Origin: a virus | Taxonomy: Duplodnaviria > Heunggongvirae > Uroviricota > Caudoviricetes | Strand: one strand, 5' to 3' | DNA length: 21,453 nucleotides | Virus record (IMG/VR): IMGVR_UViG_648276652_000012 | Part shown: in pieces, positions 1 through 17,323 of the stretch | How positions within the stretch are numbered: position 1 is the stretch's first letter | Layout: every line of letters starts with the position of its first letter | Translations under genes and position numbers: made by a program | The notes under the pieces: model-generated | The model's input: the letters and a program-made list of their open reading frames with translations, nothing else | The model's database searches: none | What the model was told of the DNA's origin: nothing

Positions 1-252
1 GGCGGTGCGGAGTCCGGAGAGTAACGGCATAGCAGAGAGCTTCGTGAAAACGATAAAGCGTGACTACATCAGTGTCATGCCCAAACCAGACGGGTTAACG
101 GCAGCAAAGAACCTTGCAGAGGCGTTCGAGCATTATAACGAATGGCATCCGCATAGTGCACTGGGTTATCGCTCGCCACGGGAATATCTACGGCAGCAAG
201 CCAGTAATGGGTTAAGTGATAACAGGTGTCTGGAAATATAGGGGCAAATCCA
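1..252 (+). mobile_element. IS2 right end (partial; element continues left of the window)
   Basis: Encoded protein ends ...[29 protein letters not shown], recalled as the C-terminus of IS2 OrfB. The terminus ...tggaaatataggggcaaatcca ending at 252 matches my memory of the IS2 inverted-repeat end. Not verified by alignment. Confidence 0.8.
2..241 (+). CDS. insD: IS2 transposase OrfB (InsD) C-terminal fragment, 5'-truncated by the window edge
   Basis: Open frame running to a stop at 239-241; DDE-transposase C-terminal sequence recognised from memory. Confidence 0.8.
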
Positions 253-280
253 GTTTGCTCTGCCATTTATTAAAACTCCT

Positions 281-311
281 GACAACAAAAAACCCACCGC
301 GAAGTGGGTTT
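281..311 (-). terminator. rho-independent terminator downstream of the GT tail chaperone gene
   Basis: Minus strand reads aaacccac-ttcgcg-gtgggttt followed by ttttgttgtc: a perfect 8-bp GC-containing stem (plus-strand core aacccac 291-297 / gtgggtt 304-310) and a T-run. Confidence 0.6.
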
Positions 312-431
312 CAGGCGACATAATAGTAGATATAGCGATTACGAGGCCACGCAATGCTTTTCTCCAGGAGCATCATCGATTTAATTAAAGACACCATCAC
401 ATCTCTGTAACAGAGTGTACGTAATTAACAA

Positions 432-1201
432 CTACACACACTGCTCCTGAAAATACTGGTCATCCAGTGCAAAGATCACTGCTTCAAATTCATCGCGCTC
501 AATCAATACCGGATGAGTGGCTAAATATTCATTTATCTCTGTCAGAGATAAAGGCAAAGGCACCCCAGCCATTCCAGCATAACGTCGGGCACGGGATATT
601 ACCGAATAGGCGTACAACAACTCCTTAAGCACCGGGTCTATTTCTGGTTCCGGTATCGGTGGCAACCTGAGTTTTTCTCGCTTCCATCTTGCCTTTTCCC
701 CCCTTTCTCCCCCGAACTCCGATAACCACCGCTGGGCAGCTATGGCTTTTTTATCGTATCCTGCTTCTGCTGCTCTTTACCCTGGGCGATGCTGGCTGCT
801 TCTGCAAGGATCTGCCAGTACAACTCTGGATTCTGCTTAAGCAGCGCGATCCCTCGTTCTGCCGTATATTCCAGTGCAACCTCAACACCATTAACCAGTT
901 CACCAACCCCTTTCCAGTCTTTCAGCAGATAACGAGCGGCATTATCAATGAGTAAATCATCAACAGAATCCACCTCGGAAACCTTTGAAATATCAAACTC
1001 CTTCGTTCCGACGTGCAAACTGGCATCCATTTTCTCAATGTGGCGACGGATTAATGCATTACGGGAGCGATACTGATCGTTATCGCTGCTTGCCACCAAC
1101 AGTTTTAACCCGTCTACAGGTTTTAAGTCCTTCATTGGCGTAAACCAGCGTTCTCCACCAATGATAATTTTCTGATTAAGAATAAACATCCATAACCTCA
1201 T
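432..1201 (-). CDS. tail assembly chaperone GT-like fusion product made by -1 frameshift at A_AAA_AAG (746-752)
   Basis: The G-like ORF ends 2 codons after an in-frame slippery heptamer A AAA AAG. The -1 frame is open from there to a stop at 432-434 (about 105 codons) and is the same frame as the listed 432..665 ORF. Position directly after the major tail gene fits the G/GT arrangement. Confidence 0.6.
740..1201 (-). CDS. tail assembly chaperone (G-like), zero-frame product
   Basis: 153-codon ORF immediately downstream of the major tail protein gene; ATG at 1201-1199; terminates just after the slippery site. Confidence 0.6.
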   Translation of the reverse strand: MRLWMFILNQKIIIGGERWFTPMKDLKPVDGLKLLVASSDNDQYRSRNALIRRHIEKMDASLHVGTKEFDISKVSEVDSVDDLLIDNAARYLLKDWKGVGELVNGVEVALEYTAERGIALLKQNPELYWQILAEAASIAQGKEQQKQDTIKKP

Positions 1202-1281
1202 TCAATGCGTCCCCCTGTAGGGCAGTACCACAGGAGGAATAACGGAAAATCAACTAATCGCCTCAGCACTGGCTTTTGCGA

Positions 1282-2211
1282 TCACGGCAGCCGGGGAATT
1301 TTTTTTCTGGTTATCGTAGGTGCTTCATCTGCTGCGGTAATGCTCAATTGAACCTGGATAATGTCGCTATTACCCCCATCAGGCCATTCACCTGACACCT
1401 GAACCTTCGGGAAACTGAAAGTGTATGCCCCCTCTCCATTCGAAAGCGTGAAGCTGAACGGAACTGTTTCTCCAGTCAGTGTTTTACTCCAGATTTCCCA
1501 CGCGGCTTTAGACCATGAAAGCGTCACCGTACCGGACGGTGTAAAAGTAGTCGGAATATTTGCTCCTGCATAAGGCGAGCCAGTCCCGATACAACGCTGT
1601 GTCTGGAGTTTGTTATCGAACTGAATATCAAAACTGTCGATACAAAAACCGTTACCTCCGGCAACACCATTCAGGCTTACTGCTGAAACCTCCTTAAACG
1701 AATAACGTAGCTTTCCTGCACTATCCACAGGTTCGCCTTTGATAAAATTCGTATCATCGGCCTTTGATTCCCAGTCCAGTCCGGCAAAGGTTACGGTCGC
1801 TGTAATATCGCCGTCGTTAGGGATCTGCATTTTCCATGAGCCAACCTGCGCTCCTCTGACGACAGAGGCAATTCCGACATCGGACGCATAGGTCGCCAGA
1901 GAAAATGTTATTCGCTCATTCCCCATTGTCAGAGAATCGCCTGACCATTCCGCGCCGAAACAGGATGCAAGAAAATCATCATGTTGACCCCAGCGAAATT
2001 TGGTACCAACATCACCGCCGACATCCACAGTGCCAGGCGTCGCCCCCTGAGCCATCCGGGAGCCACCAATCTCATTATTTTCGCCTTTATTCTGGGTGGG
2101 TTTTACTCCCCAGCTTGTGCGTTTTAATAAACTCCAGTCACCACTTGCTGGCGTAGTGCCTGCAACCGTCTCCCGGATAAATGCCGAGATAACCTTTGCA
2201 CCTGAACTCAC
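1282..2211 (-). CDS. major tail (tube) protein
   Basis: 309-aa ORF with GTG start preceded by AGGAGG (5-nt spacer). Sits between the tail-terminator-like gene and the G/GT pair; sequence is Gly/Thr/Ser-rich as expected for a beta-rich structural protein. Called by synteny. Confidence 0.6.
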   Translation of the reverse strand: MSSGAKVISAFIRETVAGTTPASGDWSLLKRTSWGVKPTQNKGENNEIGGSRMAQGATPGTVDVGGDVGTKFRWGQHDDFLASCFGAEWSGDSLTMGNERITFSLATYASDVGIASVVRGAQVGSWKMQIPNDGDITATVTFAGLDWESKADDTNFIKGEPVDSAGKLRYSFKEVSAVSLNGVAGGNGFCIDSFDIQFDNKLQTQRCIGTGSPYAGANIPTTFTPSGTVTLSWSKAAWEIWSKTLTGETVPFSFTLSNGEGAYTFSFPKVQVSGEWPDGGNSDIIQVQLSITAADEAPTITRKKIPRLP

Positions 2212-3975: not shown

Positions 3976-3998
3976 ATTAAAAATGGGGCCGAAGCCCC
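3976..3998 (-). terminator. rho-independent terminator immediately after the major capsid gene
   Basis: Minus strand reads ggggc-ttcg-gcccc followed by atttttaatgg: GC stem with a TTCG tetraloop and a T-run, just downstream of the capsid stop at 4009. Confidence 0.55.
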
Positions 3999-5246: not shown

Positions 5247-5768
5247 TTAATCAACGATTGTGATACCGTCTTTCAATGCGTTTTGCTTACCTGCAACATC
5301 CAGTGCATCAAAAGCAGAGCGTTTCATCGTTTTCTGACCAATATCATGCTGTGTCGGACGGGAGCCGCCGCCATTGTTGCCACTGGCTTTCAGGATGTAG
5401 TCTTTCTGAGGGTAATTTTCGACAAGGAACTCCAGCGCCTCATCAAACTGCGCCAGTTCGCCAGGCTTCGCGCGGGAATAAATTTTGTTGCCGGAAGCGT
5501 CATAAGCAACGATCTTCCCTTCTTCCACTTTGAATGCCTGCCCGAAGCGGGCTTGTAATAAATCTGCCGGGATCGCAATTTTATCGGCAATATATTTTGA
5601 ACCCGCAAAACTACCGCCAATCATAGAATCGTAAAGCTGCGTCTCCAGCATCTGAGAGCGTTGCTTTTCTTCATCTAATTGCTGCTGAAAATTTTTCGTA
5701 ATTTCTGCCTTAACCTGGTCAACCTGTCCCGCATCGATCAGCTTTTTCTGGTCGATTTTTAACAGCAT
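5247..5768 (-). CDS. head scaffolding-like coiled-coil protein (possibly the 3' part of a frameshifted longer gene)
   Basis: 173-aa ORF rich in Lys/Glu/Gln/Ala, between the MuF-like and capsid genes. Its frame stays open about 50 codons upstream of the first ATG, back to a TAA at 5924-5922. Confidence 0.6.
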   Translation of the reverse strand: MLLKIDQKKLIDAGQVDQVKAEITKNFQQQLDEEKQRSQMLETQLYDSMIGGSFAGSKYIADKIAIPADLLQARFGQAFKVEEGKIVAYDASGNKIYSRAKPGELAQFDEALEFLVENYPQKDYILKASGNNGGGSRPTQHDIGQKTMKRSAFDALDVAGKQNALKDGITIVD

Positions 5769-6070: not shown

Positions 6071-6100
6071 AAAAAAGGCCACCCGAAGGTAGCCTGTTGT
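6071..6100 (-). terminator. rho-independent terminator between the MuF-like gene and the scaffold gene
   Basis: Minus strand reads ggctacc-ttcg-ggtggcc followed by ttttttattg: 7-bp stem with one G-U pair, TTCG loop and T-run; lies in the 6083-6114 intergenic gap. Confidence 0.55.
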
Positions 6101-10999: not shown

Positions 11000-11251
11000 T
11001 TAGTCCTGATTTTTATCCACCCTGAGTAGTTCGCGCAGAGCAAAGGCATCCCCTTTTCTGGCAAGCTTAAACAATGCCGCTCGTAACTCGGCTTCACCTT
11101 TCGCTCTGCCCTTACGGATGGCCGCATAAAAATCTGTCATTGCTTCCCGATTTTCTTTCAGTCGGTTCAGATCAACATCCAGAACGTCAGCGATTTGTTG
11201 TGCAGTCATCCGGCACGCTGCCAGAGACTCGACTTTCGAATACGGAATCAT
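11000..11251 (-). CDS. small hypothetical protein with a possible helix-turn-helix
   Basis: 83-aa ORF ending 3 nt before the small terminase start; ATG at 11251 has GGGGGTG upstream. Overlaps the 3' end of the upstream gene by 65 nt, so the start is uncertain. Confidence 0.4.
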   Translation of the reverse strand: MIPYSKVESLAACRMTAQQIADVLDVDLNRLKENREAMTDFYAAIRKGRAKGEAELRAALFKLARKGDAFALRELLRVDKNQD

Positions 11252-12119
11252 TTGTCACCCCCATTGATATGCAGGGTGTCTTCTTCCTGTATTTTTCGTG
11301 AAGGATTTTTACTGCAGCGTTGTTCCAGGTGACCTGATGGTGAATGCGTTTATGGCTGGCACCCATCAGTGAGATTTTTACGCACGACGGCGAATACATG
11401 ACGGAGTAAAAACTTTTAACGTAGGTTCCGGAATCCAGATACAGCTCGGTCATTCCGCCGCTGTTTTTCTGCGTCTGTTTCTGCCCTAACTGGACAGCAC
11501 CGATCGTCATAAACAATTCACCACAGCGACCGAGATTCGTGTACGTATTCACATCCTCGTTAATGCGCCCCATGAATGAGAACGGTCGATCAACCGAACA
11601 GATAAAGCTGTTCATTGCCTTGCGTTTCACCCACGAAGCATGGCCGCCATTGTCACCAAGAAAATCCCCGCCCTGCGACATAGCGATGGAAAGCGCGGGT
11701 ATTGATTCGTAATACGCCAGCATTTCAGAAAGGATCGCATCCAGTTTCCTTATCGGGAAATAGGCCTGGTCATAGTTGCGATCCACCCGAAACTGGAACT
11801 CGTGATAATCATCATCGAGCTGAATGAAGTATTTACACCCGACCAGTTTTGCCAGGTCGAAACAGGCATTACGGGCGTAAAAAATTGAGCGGCGATCACC
11901 AAAATTATCGGCTTCGTCAAAACGACTGGCAATATCGGCTTTGGAAAATACCAGCACCTGTTCACCAAATTCAGCCATGTACTGATGCCGTGTCTTATCT
12001 TCATCATCAACAACGATAAAAATTTTCCCGGTATAGCCAGCACGACGCAACGTCCGGTAAGTCAGAACTTTGTCCGGTCGCCCGTGAGTCAGAATAAAGG
12101 CGCAAAAATCATCACGCAT
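11187..12119 (-). CDS. GT-A-like putative nucleotide-sugar transferase (glycosyltransferase motifs)
   Basis: N-terminal FILTHGRPDKV...KIFIVVDDED resembles the GT2-type sugar-nucleotide binding signature; a downstream QLDDDYHEF resembles a DXD motif. No predicted transmembrane stretch. Start set at the ATG at 12119, preceded by GGAGGAGGAGGAGG. Motif-based call, not verified. Confidence 0.5.
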   Translation of the reverse strand: MRDDFCAFILTHGRPDKVLTYRTLRRAGYTGKIFIVVDDEDKTRHQYMAEFGEQVLVFSKADIASRFDEADNFGDRRSIFYARNACFDLAKLVGCKYFIQLDDDYHEFQFRVDRNYDQAYFPIRKLDAILSEMLAYYESIPALSIAMSQGGDFLGDNGGHASWVKRKAMNSFICSVDRPFSFMGRINEDVNTYTNLGRCGELFMTIGAVQLGQKQTQKNSGGMTELYLDSGTYVKSFYSVMYSPSCVKISLMGASHKRIHHQVTWNNAAVKILHEKYRKKTPCISMGVTNDSVFESRVSGSVPDDCTTNR

Positions 12120-12906
12120 ATTCCTCCTCCTCCTCCCCGCCATGCATGATCTCCACCATGCGCTGCGTCATTCGGACAAATCCATTTTCAATAGCCTGCT
12201 GATAATCAATGATCACCAGCGCCGACTCCTCGAAAAGGCACTGAATTTCAGCGGGGGCATGAGCGTAATAGTCCGCAATTCTGCTGAAATTAAACACTGT
12301 GTGACGTTCTGCCGCACACAGGAGGAATTTCTCAATATCAGGATCAAGGGACGCCGAACGTATCCGGCTGATCAGCTCCTGAGTTTTCGTATCGTCGTAC
12401 AGTTCACTGATATCCGGTTTACCGCCCGACGGCTCATAAACAGGCGTATCAATTTTCGTCGTATACGGCTCCTCCTCATTTCCTGTACCGGGCAAAACAT
12501 CCGTCAACAGTTCATCAATTTCTGTCGGGATGAAGCCTGTCAGGGAGACATCAAAATCAGCATTGATTAGGTCCGACAGCTCCATCCGCAACAGATCTTC
12601 ATCCCAGCCAGCATTCATCGGCAGGCGATTATCTGCCAGGCGGTACGCCTTTTTCTGCTCATCCGTCAGGCCAGACAGAACAATGACCGGAACAGAATCC
12701 ATTTTGAGCATTTCAGCCGCCATAACACGACCGTGACCCGCAATAATTTCGCCCTTTTCGTCAATCAGCACCGGATTAGTCCAGCCGAATTGCTTAATAC
12801 TTTCTACCAGTTGTGCCACCTGCTCAGGGCTGTGCGTCCTGGCGTTGTGCGCATACGGTGACAATTCTTGTAATGGGCGATAGACTATCTTTAATTTCTC
12901 GCTCAT
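12112..12906 (-). CDS. ParB-like nuclease domain (ParB/Srx N-terminal domain) protein
   Basis: N-terminal region PLQELSPYAHNARTHSPEQVAQLVESIKQFGWTNPVLIDEKGEIIAGHGRVMAA fits the ParB/sulfiredoxin-fold pattern; acidic C-terminus (GGEEEEEYA). Confidence 0.7.
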   Translation of the reverse strand: MSEKLKIVYRPLQELSPYAHNARTHSPEQVAQLVESIKQFGWTNPVLIDEKGEIIAGHGRVMAAEMLKMDSVPVIVLSGLTDEQKKAYRLADNRLPMNAGWDEDLLRMELSDLINADFDVSLTGFIPTEIDELLTDVLPGTGNEEEPYTTKIDTPVYEPSGGKPDISELYDDTKTQELISRIRSASLDPDIEKFLLCAAERHTVFNFSRIADYYAHAPAEIQCLFEESALVIIDYQQAIENGFVRMTQRMVEIMHGGEEEEEYA

Positions 12907-12920
12907 ACAGCCTTGCTTTA

Positions 12921-12958
12921 TGAATAAAACGCACCCCAGCAGCCAGTGCTACTGGGGA
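12921..12958 (-). terminator. rho-independent terminator downstream of trkG
   Basis: Minus strand reads ccccagtagcactggctgctgggg (imperfect roughly 10-bp stem) followed by tgcgttttattcat. Confidence 0.55.
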
Positions 12959-13043
12959 CGGAGGGGTTGCTGGTAAAGTTAGGTATTGGATCAATGAGTG
13001 AGTCAACATAATATTAAACTCACAATTATAAATCAGCCATATA

Positions 13044-14501
13044 TTAGGAGCGCCAAAAAAAACCTGAAAACAATATAATAACAGGATAAATTTCAAGGCG
13101 ACCAAGAATCATAGCTATGCACATTAAACATTTTGCAATGTCATTAAGCACTCCGAATGACGATGCAGTAGCCCCAAAACCTAATCCCATATTATTAATA
13201 CATGCAGCCACTGTTGCAAATGATGTAAGAAAATCATATCCCATACCATTTAACACCAGTATAAAAAACACCGTGAAGAGAGTATAAAGAAAAAAGAAAC
13301 TCCATACAGACCTCATTACACGATCTGTAACTATCTTCCCTCCTACATTTACACTCAACAACGCTCTGGGATGAGAAAGCTGATTTATCTCGTGTTTGCT
13401 TTGTTTGAAAAGTATAAGAAATCGAAGTGACTTAATTCCACCACAAGTTGAACCTATACATCCCCCAAAGAAACTTGACAACAGCAAAAACACTATCGTG
13501 TGCGTGGGCCAACTTGCATAATCCTGCGTAGCTAAACCATTATCAGTGAGCATGGAGCTGGCAAGAAAAAACGAATGAATAAAACTTCCATGCAAGTCAT
13601 ACATACCTATATGCCAGACCTGGAAAGAGGTAACAATGATCACCCCTAAGGCTATTAACAGAAAGAAACGAAGTTCAATATCTCTGATTAAAGGTTTTAT
13701 CGTTTTCCTGCTAATAACAATATACCAAAGAGTGAAGTTGAAAGCCGATAGCAGGGAAAAAGAACCAGCCACCAGCTCAACCAAATAGTTATTAAAATAT
13801 CCGATACTCTCGCTATGAGTTGAGAAACCACCAAGCGAAACTGTGGAAATCCCGTGACAAATAGCATCAAACAAAGGCATTCCTGCAAGTCTATAACAGA
13901 CAATACAAGCAATACCTAATAAAGAATAAGTTATCCACAGTGTCCGTGACGTATCGGCCAGGCGGGGAGTGAGTTTGTCATCCTTAAATGGCCCCGGCAT
14001 TTCTGACTGATAAAGCTTTGCACCACCAATACCCAATAATGGCAATACAGCAACCGCCAGAACAATAACTCCTAAACCACCTATAAAATTTAACTGTGAC
14101 CGATAGTACAAATATGCCCGAGGTAATGAACTAACATCATCAATTACAGTTGCTCCTGTTGTTGTTATTCCAGAAACCCCTTCAAACAGAGCATCAATGA
14201 ACGTTAAATTAAGTTCTGAGTCAATCCATAAAGGGAATGCACTAATAACAGAAAACAAAATCCAAAACATTACAATTATAATAAACCCATCACGGGTACG
14301 TAATTGAATGCCAGATTTCTTAGTTGTATACCACGCTCCGCCACCAATGCAAAAAAATATAACGAAAGTTATAAAGAAAACGAACAGGCTTTTTTCTTTA
14401 TAAAACAATGCTACAACCATTGGTGGCAACATTGAAAGACTATAGAGCCAAACCAGGAACCCACACATATGAGTAACAACTCTTACATGAGATGTATTCA
14501 T
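13044..14501 (-). CDS. trkG: Trk-system potassium uptake protein TrkG (TrkH/KtrB family)
   Basis: 485-aa polytopic membrane protein starting MNTSHVRVVTHMCGFLVWLYSL..., recognised from memory as E. coli TrkG. Markedly AT-rich compared with flanking phage genes. Start trimmed from the TTG at 14519 to the ATG at 14501. Confidence 0.9.
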   Translation of the reverse strand: MNTSHVRVVTHMCGFLVWLYSLSMLPPMVVALFYKEKSLFVFFITFVIFFCIGGGAWYTTKKSGIQLRTRDGFIIIVMFWILFSVISAFPLWIDSELNLTFIDALFEGVSGITTTGATVIDDVSSLPRAYLYYRSQLNFIGGLGVIVLAVAVLPLLGIGGAKLYQSEMPGPFKDDKLTPRLADTSRTLWITYSLLGIACIVCYRLAGMPLFDAICHGISTVSLGGFSTHSESIGYFNNYLVELVAGSFSLLSAFNFTLWYIVISRKTIKPLIRDIELRFFLLIALGVIIVTSFQVWHIGMYDLHGSFIHSFFLASSMLTDNGLATQDYASWPTHTIVFLLLSSFFGGCIGSTCGGIKSLRFLILFKQSKHEINQLSHPRALLSVNVGGKIVTDRVMRSVWSFFFLYTLFTVFFILVLNGMGYDFLTSFATVAACINNMGLGFGATASSFGVLNDIAKCLMCIAMILGRLEIYPVIILFSGFFWRS

Positions 14502-14638
14502 ATCTAAATATTCTTTCAATTATAACCACCTTGCTGCAATATTATGATTATACTGTATAAAATTTAACTCCTCTTAGATCTTACTTCACTGTTCCTTATG
14601 AAACAATCATCAAAATGAATCATATTGTAGTTAAGATT

Positions 14639-16142: not shown

Positions 16143-16172
16143 ATTATGGCTAAATGGATAATTGCATGTCAA
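16143..16172 (-). promoter_or_regulatory. candidate late promoter pR' (sigma-70; consensus -35, 18-nt spacer, near-consensus -10) overlapping the Q 3' end
   Basis: Minus strand: TTGACA (plus 16167-16172) - 18 nt - CATAAT (plus 16143-16148). The Q stop codon lies between them; the T-run terminator follows about 45 nt downstream. Confidence 0.6.
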
Positions 16173-16668
16173 GGCTTTTAACAGCAACATGCTTAACTTT
16201 CTCAACACGTTTACGCATTTTGAAAGCATTTTGCATTGGCTGGTACAAAACAAATAACGACGCTTTCAGGATGTCGTCAATTTCGTTTCTACAGGTTGCC
16301 AGTGAAGGTTTTCTCCATCCCTCGCCACCACGTCCACACATCTTGCGTGGCTTTGCAGTCGCGTGATAGTAGGATGCAATTGCTCGCTTAGATGAACCAT
16401 GAGCGTAGTAGCTGAGGAGGATGCCAAAGGCTTTTTTGTCAATGCACATGACGGAATCGACGACCTGAGAAATCAACATTCCATCATCATCATTACACAT
16501 TGGCCTTGTCATAACTCTTCCCGGCTCTACGCTCTCCATGAACTTAGCTATTACGCTGCTCATGCGCTTTTCCAGACGACCTGAATAAACCCATGCGCCC
16601 CACAGTTCAAGCCAGCCATTCAGCCACTCGTGCTGTTCTTTGGTGAGGTTTAGTTCTCTTATGCCCAT
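16150..16668 (-). CDS. Q: late antiterminator Q (phage 21/82-type)
   Basis: Motifs ELWGAW, CNDDDGM and LLSYYAHG recalled from Q-family proteins; sits between ninG and the lysis genes. Start set at the ATG at 16668 (GGGAGAAGG upstream) rather than the GTG at 16725, which overlaps ninG. Confidence 0.8.
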   Translation of the reverse strand: MGIRELNLTKEQHEWLNGWLELWGAWVYSGRLEKRMSSVIAKFMESVEPGRVMTRPMCNDDDGMLISQVVDSVMCIDKKAFGILLSYYAHGSSKRAIASYYHATAKPRKMCGRGGEGWRKPSLATCRNEIDDILKASLFVLYQPMQNAFKMRKRVEKVKHVAVKSLDMQLSI

Positions 16669-16711
16669 GCGCCTTCTCCCTTGTGATCTGGAATGGTTTT
16701 TACTGAGAACG

Positions 16712-17323
16712 TCATGCGGCCTCACTTCTGCTGTTTCGCAGGTCTTTGAGTTTCTGCTGATACTCCGCCTTGATGGCCCTGCACTCTTCGACAGTCCAGC
16801 GATGGCGGTTATGGTTTGATTCGATTTCGTCTACTGCTTCCTGCCCGATGCGGCTAATCAGTTCGACGCGATACGGAACGAGATTTCCGCTTTTGTGCTG
16901 GTTGCACACCACGCATTGCTTGTGAATATTGCGTTCATCAAATCGGAGTTGAGGTGCCGCAGCAGTTGTCCGGTAATGTCCGGCATCCCACTGAGCAGAC
17001 GTGAGCGTTCCGCACGAGATACATGGTAAGTCGCGGTCTCTTTCTCTGATGAAGGCGTTTACGGCTTGTTGGGCTTGTTTAATCCAGTAACTGCGGGGCT
17101 TTAAGGCGAGTTTTCGAATCTTAAGTTTATCTTTCTGTTTCTGCTCCTCTCGTCGTCGTTTCTTCTCTGCTGCTTTTTCCGCTTTTTCGCGTTCTTTACT
17201 TCGTCGTTCGAGTGCTATCTTGGTTCCACACTCTGGAGAGCACCACCACTGATTAGCGAATGCAGGATGAAACCATTCCCGACATTCTTCGTTTTTACAT
17301 CGTCTTCGCGCTTGTTTAGCCAT
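16712..17323 (-). CDS. ninG: NinG (Rap) recombination-associated protein
   Basis: 203 aa, [33 protein letters not shown]..., recognised from memory as nearly identical to lambda NinG. Confidence 0.9.

Follow-up and report, generated by a model that had tools for sequence, protein, structure and literature searches.

An IS2 insertion at the extreme start of the tape-measure gene of a Rac-family prophage of Escherichia coli MS 119-7, next to a native terminator-like hairpin

According to the review by Cumby and colleagues (PMC3594210), gene 15 of phage HK97 sits in the gap between the genes for the tail chaperone and the tape measure, and a moron comes with a promoter and a terminator of its own. 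The GenBank record of HK97 spells out the arrangement: GT is followed by gp15 (a "moron product"), then by a putative terminator (ACCCGCT-ATCA-AGCGGGT-T8) and, 12 nt later, by the ATG of gene 16, which encodes the tape-measure protein (TMP). In lambda, the T and H genes overlap, with no spacer or hairpin known between them. The E. coli K-12 Rac prophage (ydaY to ynaA/tmpR) has lost its terminase-to-tube genes and most of its TMP gene by deletion; what it retains of this region is considered below. The other known system that bears on this locus is an insertion sequence: IS2 has terminal repeats of 41 bp (IRR) and 42 bp (IRL) and transposes by a copy-out/paste-in pathway that goes through a figure-of-eight and a minicircle (PMC3299598).

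The stretch of DNA analysed here, referred to below as the window, is the entire 21,453-bp contig ADWU01000056.1 of the draft assembly GCA_000179155.1 of E. coli MS 119-7; proteins from it have been deposited under that strain name as EFK43542.1 and EFK43550.1. The region of interest is the right end of an IS2 element joined to the TMP start of a Rac-family lambdoid prophage (Table 1). The explanation as a whole, which we hold to be very probably correct, is that IS2 has split the TMP gene of this prophage and that the hairpin just upstream of that gene is native to the phage, where it serves as the terminator of the slot between GT and TMP. All the elements named in a preliminary description of this DNA are present, essentially where it placed them; its suggestions that the hairpin is unusual or tied to the insertion were not supported.

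Table 1. Features of the IS2/TMP junction and of the adjoining chaperone genes (window positions)
Feature	Position	Strand	Remark
IS2-group (IS3 family) right end, 252 bp	1-252	+	contig terminates inside the element
IS2 right inverted repeat (IRR), 41 bp	212-252	+	ends ...GGGGCAAATCCA
63-codon junk frame: MAEQT and 58 residues antisense through the IS2 end	75-266	-	product of the native TMP start
GTTTG, one copy of the 5-bp target-site duplication	253-257		single copy in the intact site
First 14 nt of the TMP gene (ATGGCAGAGCAAAC)	253-266	-	severed from the remaining 1073 codons
Shine-Dalgarno sequence AGGAG	276-280	-	9 nt before the TMP ATG; read from sequence
Intrinsic-terminator-like hairpin with UUCG-type loop, then T-run	283-312 (stem 312-289)	-	terminator scan
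Spacer from GT stop to TMP start, 165 nt, an almost empty "moron slot"	267-431	-	38-1783 nt in relatives
T part of the GT fusion (-1 frame)	432-752	-	stop TAG 434-432; frame arithmetic and translation
Slippery heptamer A AAA AAG for the -1 frameshift from G to GT	746-752	-	near the end of G
G (YdaY) tail assembly chaperone	740-1201	-	PHROG 313, E 4e-46; PF27119 Phage_YdaY

The boundary between element and phage is sharp. Every alignment of the IS-free relatives to the window starts exactly at 253. On the other side of that boundary, the translation of 2-241 (+) corresponds to positions 223-301 of 301 in the NCBIfam family "IS2 transposase TnpB" (E 2e-50): the last 79 residues of OrfB are present, and rve_3 is matched as well. 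The IRR has 1 mismatch in its final 41 bp with that of the complete canonical IS2 of strain S1-IND-01-A. Over the full 252 bp there are 9 mismatches with canonical IS2 and 4 with the 1331-bp element of TUM9868. That ADWU01000056.1 terminates within IS2 reflects a repeat that broke the assembly. (An observation on the terminus: at 241-261 (+), IS2 end and target together form an inverted repeat, GCAAA-TCCA-GTTTGC, that the scan for terminators picked up. Read as its reverse complement, the IS2 tip is similar to the target GTTTGC, perhaps by chance, perhaps because IS3-family elements target end-like sequences.)

The ATG at 266-264 (-), which opens MAEQT and had been proposed as a gene start, is the annotated start of TMP in intact relatives. 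FDAARGOS_497 (L001), 100% identical to window 253-1300, has a 1077-aa "phage tail tape measure protein" annotated from the base equivalent to window 266; other genomes and phage records have TMP annotated from the same start, the homologues in Klebsiella phages begin at the equivalent MTEQTSRLA, and the Shine-Dalgarno sequence is conserved in relatives as AGGAG, TGGAG or CGGAG. The intact site reads ATGGCAGAGCAAAC|CTCGCGTCTC. The IS2 end stands after nucleotide 14 of the gene, that is, after 4 codons and 2 nt, for which "5 codons", as originally given, was a fair approximation. The gene product matches TIGR01541 (E 1e-64) and PHROG 24; its domains are TMP_2, TMP_4 and Tape_meas_lam_C (PF06791, PF24622 and PF09718). 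The genomic setting is the expected one: the TMP gene directly follows G/GT, and the tail-tip genes M, L, K (a C40 peptidase), I and J lie downstream on a second contig, ADWU01000070, to which we return below.

The 256-aa GT fusion matches PHROG 313 ("tail assembly chaperone") end to end (positions 13-246 of 258). Several features of the genes upstream of it deserve a word in passing. The homopolymer at 1299-1306 in the tail tube gene (1282-2211, -) is T8 here and T9 in most relatives, which alters the last codons and makes the product 309 rather than 320 aa long; the 309-aa tube recurs on 1000 contigs or more, which marks it as a common allele rather than an obvious sequencing error. The protein encoded at 5247-5768 is, in turn, a rare allele, seen on 47 contigs. 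Between the lysis genes and the terminase (11187-14519, -) lie trkG (a potassium transporter gene, host-type cargo), a gene with a ParB_N domain and a PF20691 (TAGT) gene; the pairing of ParB_N and PF20691 ahead of the packaging genes is unusual. The gene for the Q antiterminator (PF06530) occupies 16150-16725, and a near-consensus promoter, TTGACA-18-CATAAT (11/12), at 16172-16143 (-) overlaps its 3' end; this is likely the late promoter, the equivalent of PR'.

The hairpin that precedes the TMP gene reads GAAACCCAC-TTCG-CGGTGGGTTTT, is followed by a T-rich tail, and has a folding energy of -12.8 kcal/mol. A lenient terminator scan yields 4 sites in 2.5 kb where 2.7 are expected, which on its own is not significant; the argument for the reality of the hairpin consequently rests on its conservation. 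The hairpin and what surrounds it are identical in IS-free genomes such as FDAARGOS_497 and in K-12 Rac, where ydaY and ynaA flank it, and in other IS-free relatives the hairpin differs only by small changes in the loop, the end of the stem and the T-run. The idea that the terminator might belong to the history of the insertion thus falls away: relatives that have no IS possess it too, and K-12 Rac matches it at 100% identity. The hairpin at 289-312 belongs to the phage itself and is no part of the insertion. (A terminator created by IS2, or brought with it, is ruled out on the same grounds.)

How general is this element? The spacers between GT and TMP were compared in 80 IMG/VR loci with G homologues of 77-100% identity, plus one Klebsiella phage. 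These yield 29 distinct spacers, and their lengths run from 38 to 1783 nt. In 26 of the 29, a GC hairpin and T-run end 20-27 nt before the TMP ATG; the 3 exceptions have weakened hairpins in the same place. Random 93-nt windows of the same loci have such a hairpin at a rate of 4.9%. The stems come in at least 7 different sequences (CCCAC/GTGGG, CCCGC/GCGGG, GCCGC/GCGGC, GGCCCCGC/GCGGGGCC, CCCGG/CCGGG and others), while the T-run and the ribosome-binding site stay similar, and several of the stem differences look compensatory by eye (for example, GCGGGTT/AACCCGC versus GTGGGTT/AACCCAC). A terminator between GT and the next gene, which had at first seemed out of the ordinary, is therefore nothing of the kind in these phages: its position is fixed in 26 of 29 spacers of the family, and HK97 provides a precedent. 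The window has other hairpins of this type on the minus strand: at 3985-3998, just after the major capsid gene (UUCG-type loop, -11.1 kcal/mol); at 6076-6095, after the Mu-F-like head gene (UUCG-type loop, -13.8 kcal/mol); and at 12934-12957, after the trkG cargo gene (-22.5 kcal/mol). Since comparable hairpins follow the capsid gene, the head gene and trkG, internal terminators are a normal feature of this late operon; as in lambda, polymerase presumably passes them in lytic growth.

What might the hairpin do? In the reading that we favor, it is a putative intrinsic terminator that would close a variable slot between GT and TMP, a slot that in this lineage is almost empty. In the lysogen, transcripts of slot cargo would end there and not reach the tail genes; during lytic growth, Q-modified RNA polymerase, by analogy with lambda, would be expected to pass the hairpin. 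The hairpin may also act as an attenuator.

One can also think of the hairpin as mainly a regulatory element of the phage backbone rather than as a moron's terminator. It would hold tube and chaperone expression high and TMP expression low, either through partial termination or through protection of the upstream message at its 3' end. The minimal spacers of 38-39 nt, which carry no cargo, nevertheless keep the hairpin, and for that reason a backbone role in dosage or mRNA stability is at least as plausible as a terminator linked purely to cargo. The nearly fixed distance to the TMP ATG (20-27 nt), the turnover of stem sequence with retention of pairing, and the presence of similar UUCG hairpins after the capsid and head genes of the same operon all point the same way. 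On the other hand, a Q antiterminator is encoded by this phage, and polymerase modified by a lambda-type Q disregards intrinsic terminators; moreover, lambda makes do with a T/H overlap in which no hairpin is known, so that the element would not be a general requirement. A mainly regulatory role is accordingly a possibility that we entertain with some doubt. In its broadest form the conjecture, likewise tentative, is of a conserved backbone element, its pairing kept by compensatory change even in the absence of cargo, which would either set the chaperone:TMP expression ratio or mark a preferred recombination boundary for the exchange of cargo.

The favored reading, in which the hairpin closes a slot, draws on what that slot holds in other phages. 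The long spacers of relatives carry cargo genes that are unrelated to one another: an Ail/Lom-type outer-membrane barrel of 178-185 aa; a protein of 132 aa that has no Pfam match and, judged by eye, a hydrophobic N-terminal segment; a membrane protein with DUF2545 and zinc-ribbon parts; a KilA-N protein; and several open reading frames that belong to no family. (The cargo-bearing loci are L059, L068 and L070-L074; L014, L091, L092 and L095; L087 and L090; and L083, L093 and L096.) These are candidate lysogenic-conversion or exclusion genes, and a variable cargo slot marked by a hairpin at a constant spacing from the start of TMP should be of modest use for spotting cargo genes in prophages. 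The corresponding spacer of the window (267-431) has no open reading frame of 35 aa or more, and its minus strand shows nothing that resembles a promoter. Slot and terminator are thus present in the window, but, for want of a promoter-like site and a cargo gene, a moron is not. Remnants of the long cargo spacers, sought in the 165-nt spacer with blastn, came to a single 13-nt chance match, and a literature search on ynaA together with ydaY turned up nothing relevant.

Could the 165-nt spacer itself be a tiny moron, specifying a small RNA or a peptide of 21-28 residues (MVSLIKSMMLLEKSIAWPRNRYIYYYVA), with the hairpin as its own terminator? A 28-codon frame (MVSLIKSMMLLEKSIAWPRNRYIYYYVA) runs at 313-397 (-) and ends 2 nt before the terminator stem. 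An open frame that stops 2 nt short of a stem is suggestive; the spacer, besides, hardly varies between relatives in which the flanking proteins diverge by 5-10%, and gp15 of HK97 is also small (62 aa). But that strand offers no promoter-like site, an Rfam scan of 1-2500 returned only a sub-threshold chance hit, and nothing is annotated in the corresponding spacer of curated K-12. The first ATG of the frame is ATA in relatives L075-L082, and substitutions are too few for a test of coding constraint. We consider a tiny moron unlikely.

We come now to the other half of the split gene. IMG/VR was searched with a gapped pattern consisting of the left end of IS2, then at most 12 free bases, then TMP nucleotide 15 onward. 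The yield was one contig (L098, 11,259 bp), identical to ADWU01000070.1 of the same assembly, GCA_000179155.1; its proteins are deposited as EFK43308.1 and EFK43303.1 (E. coli MS 119-7). At the window junction one reads ...AAATCCA|GTTTG CTCTGCCAT, and at the L098 junction ...GCGAGACGCGAG GTTTG|TAGACTGGCCCCC (in longer form, ...ATTGCGAGACGCGAG GTTTG|TAGACTGGCCCCCTGAATC). The second copy of GTTTG lies at L098 11000-11004, directly before the IS2 left end TAGACTGG...; the IRL is present, the sequence from 11005 reading TAGACTGGCCCCCTGAATCTCC.... The preliminary description had proposed that IS2 interrupts a tape-measure gene at its extreme 5' end, and had looked to a reading frame resuming beyond the element, with a 5-bp duplication, as the way to find out. 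The TMP frame on L098 does pick up at nucleotide 15, exactly where it was cut, with GTTTG on both sides, and the proposal is borne out: with IS2 and one GTTTG taken out in silico, the gene reads as an unbroken 1077-aa TMP that is identical to that of an intact relative at 1069 of 1077 residues. This is a simple IS2 insertion after TMP nucleotide 14, with duplication of GTTTG. The TMP frame is otherwise undamaged, and the insertion is, for that reason, probably recent.

The two ends also resemble each other as IS2 sequences. Both belong to one minority variant: each shows 4 mismatches against the TUM9868 element, where canonical IS2 gives 9 and 14; over the 507 bp that are seen, this copy is approximately 94-96% identical to canonical IS2. 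ADWU01000070.1 holds the first part of OrfA (HTH_Tnp_1). Each contig stops approximately 250 bp inside the element, and the central approximately 0.8 kb of the copy is absent from the assembly; related full-length copies are 1331 bp long and are annotated with the OrfA/OrfB programmed frameshift.

The physical contiguity of the two contigs is thus something that we infer from the matching duplication and the matching IS variant, and that was not read directly. Both contigs end inside a repeat, and IS2 is present in several copies in E. coli genomes (a query that includes the IS2 segment matches each genome at a median of 3 places, with a maximum of 41), which leaves room for the suggestion that the two ends come from different IS2 copies, or that later IS2-IS2 recombination (producing an inversion, a deletion or a composite structure) has left the TMP start and its remainder no longer adjacent. 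Recombination between copies, however, normally leaves non-matching flanks at each copy, and here GTTTG is found at both ends, both ends are of the same minority variant, and taking out the IS gives a perfect TMP frame; such rearrangement is very improbable. A draft assembly whose exact junction is missing from all 5,426 complete E. coli genomes, from the GTDB representative genomes and from IMG/VR might be suspected of having fused an IS2 read to phage sequence in a chimeric contig end. This suspicion can be set aside almost entirely, given a break exactly at the canonical IS2 terminus and, on an independent contig, the reciprocal junction at the same nucleotide with the expected 5-bp duplication.

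The single IS2 insertion in MS 119-7 has counterparts in the same tail module. In E. coli M18 (L102), an IS2-group element is inserted in G/ydaY; in TUM9868 (L002), in the T frame, with duplication of CATTC; and in S1-IND-01-A (L003), approximately 320 nt into the TMP gene, with duplication of ATTCC. There are thus at least 4 independent IS2-group insertions in the stretch comprising G, T and the TMP start, in different strains. The orientation is shared by all of the other insertions, but the search favored it, as it did proximity, and for this reason neither a hot spot nor an orientation bias is claimed.

What are the likely consequences for the prophage? The element would have arrived by the copy-out/paste-in route, through a minicircle intermediate; it is oriented with its transposase genes running against the direction of the phage late operon. 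The insertion cuts the ribosome-binding site, the ATG and the first 4 codons of TMP from the other 1073 codons. Translation from the native start would run into the antisense of IS2 and yield a 63-residue peptide; the protein collection has on record no gene with such a product. As for the TMP remainder, an in-frame TAA stands 42 nt upstream of the junction, within the left end of IS2, and the first possible start codon (ATG, GTG or TTG) is that of Met31. (An in-frame IS2-TMP fusion starting from an ATG in the IS2 left end is ruled out by that TAA and by the lack of a start before Met31.) With a 63-residue peptide from the native start and a remainder that has no start before Met31, no functional TMP is to be expected. 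By the example of lambda gpH, tail assembly should then fail in this prophage. The rest of it, replication, lysis and head genes included, looks undamaged: O, P, NinG, NinX, Q, lysozyme, Rz, trkG, terminase, portal, capsid and tube.

These considerations have a bearing on annotation. The "TMP" that GenBank lists for the second contig, EFK43308.1, is 1047 aa long and starts at Met31; judging by the two sequences, it appears to be a truncation artefact of a TMP gene split over two contigs. A contig from Logan SRR25183528 (L099) has the same 1047-aa TMP called; it is apparently free of IS, with 564 nt from the end of G to the called start, and the call there may reflect a gene caller's choice of Met31 as start rather than any disruption. 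Because the 1047-aa call occurs there too, length alone cannot identify IS-split TMP genes in databases. The MS 119-7 prophage looks complete and is nevertheless almost certainly tail-less, with one IS2 splitting TMP across two contigs. It makes a clean example of the disabling of a prophage by an IS.

All the components of this locus are of well-known kinds, and the finding fits known biology. The element compares with IS2 of the IS3 family in having the same IRR and IRL termini, the C-terminus of OrfB and a 5-bp target duplication; it differs in being a sequence variant of the canonical element, and in its site, TMP nucleotide 14, which is so occupied in 0 of 5,426 complete E. coli genomes. 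HK97 has the same order of parts: GT (made by -1 frameshifting), a variable slot, a GC hairpin with T-run, a ribosome-binding site and the TMP ATG. The slot here, in contrast to that of HK97, has no recognisable gene or promoter, and no DNA similarity is detectable between the two modules. The classic picture of HK97 gene 15 is in this sense extended to the Rac family, and leaves current understanding unchanged. With lambda, the locus shares the G/GT pair generated by -1 frameshifting and a Tape_meas_lam_C TMP, followed by M, L, K, I and J; it departs from lambda in the spacer with hairpin, which is always present in the Rac-type family (weakened in 3 of 29 cases). The closest likeness is to K-12 Rac, which shares G, the T frame, the spacer, the hairpin and the TMP start, is 100% identical over window 253-420 (the stretch searched), and has trkG in the same place. 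The two prophages part ways in how they decayed: whereas K-12 Rac suffered deletion, the MS 119-7 prophage keeps its whole late operon and has, as it seems, been disabled by IS2 instead.
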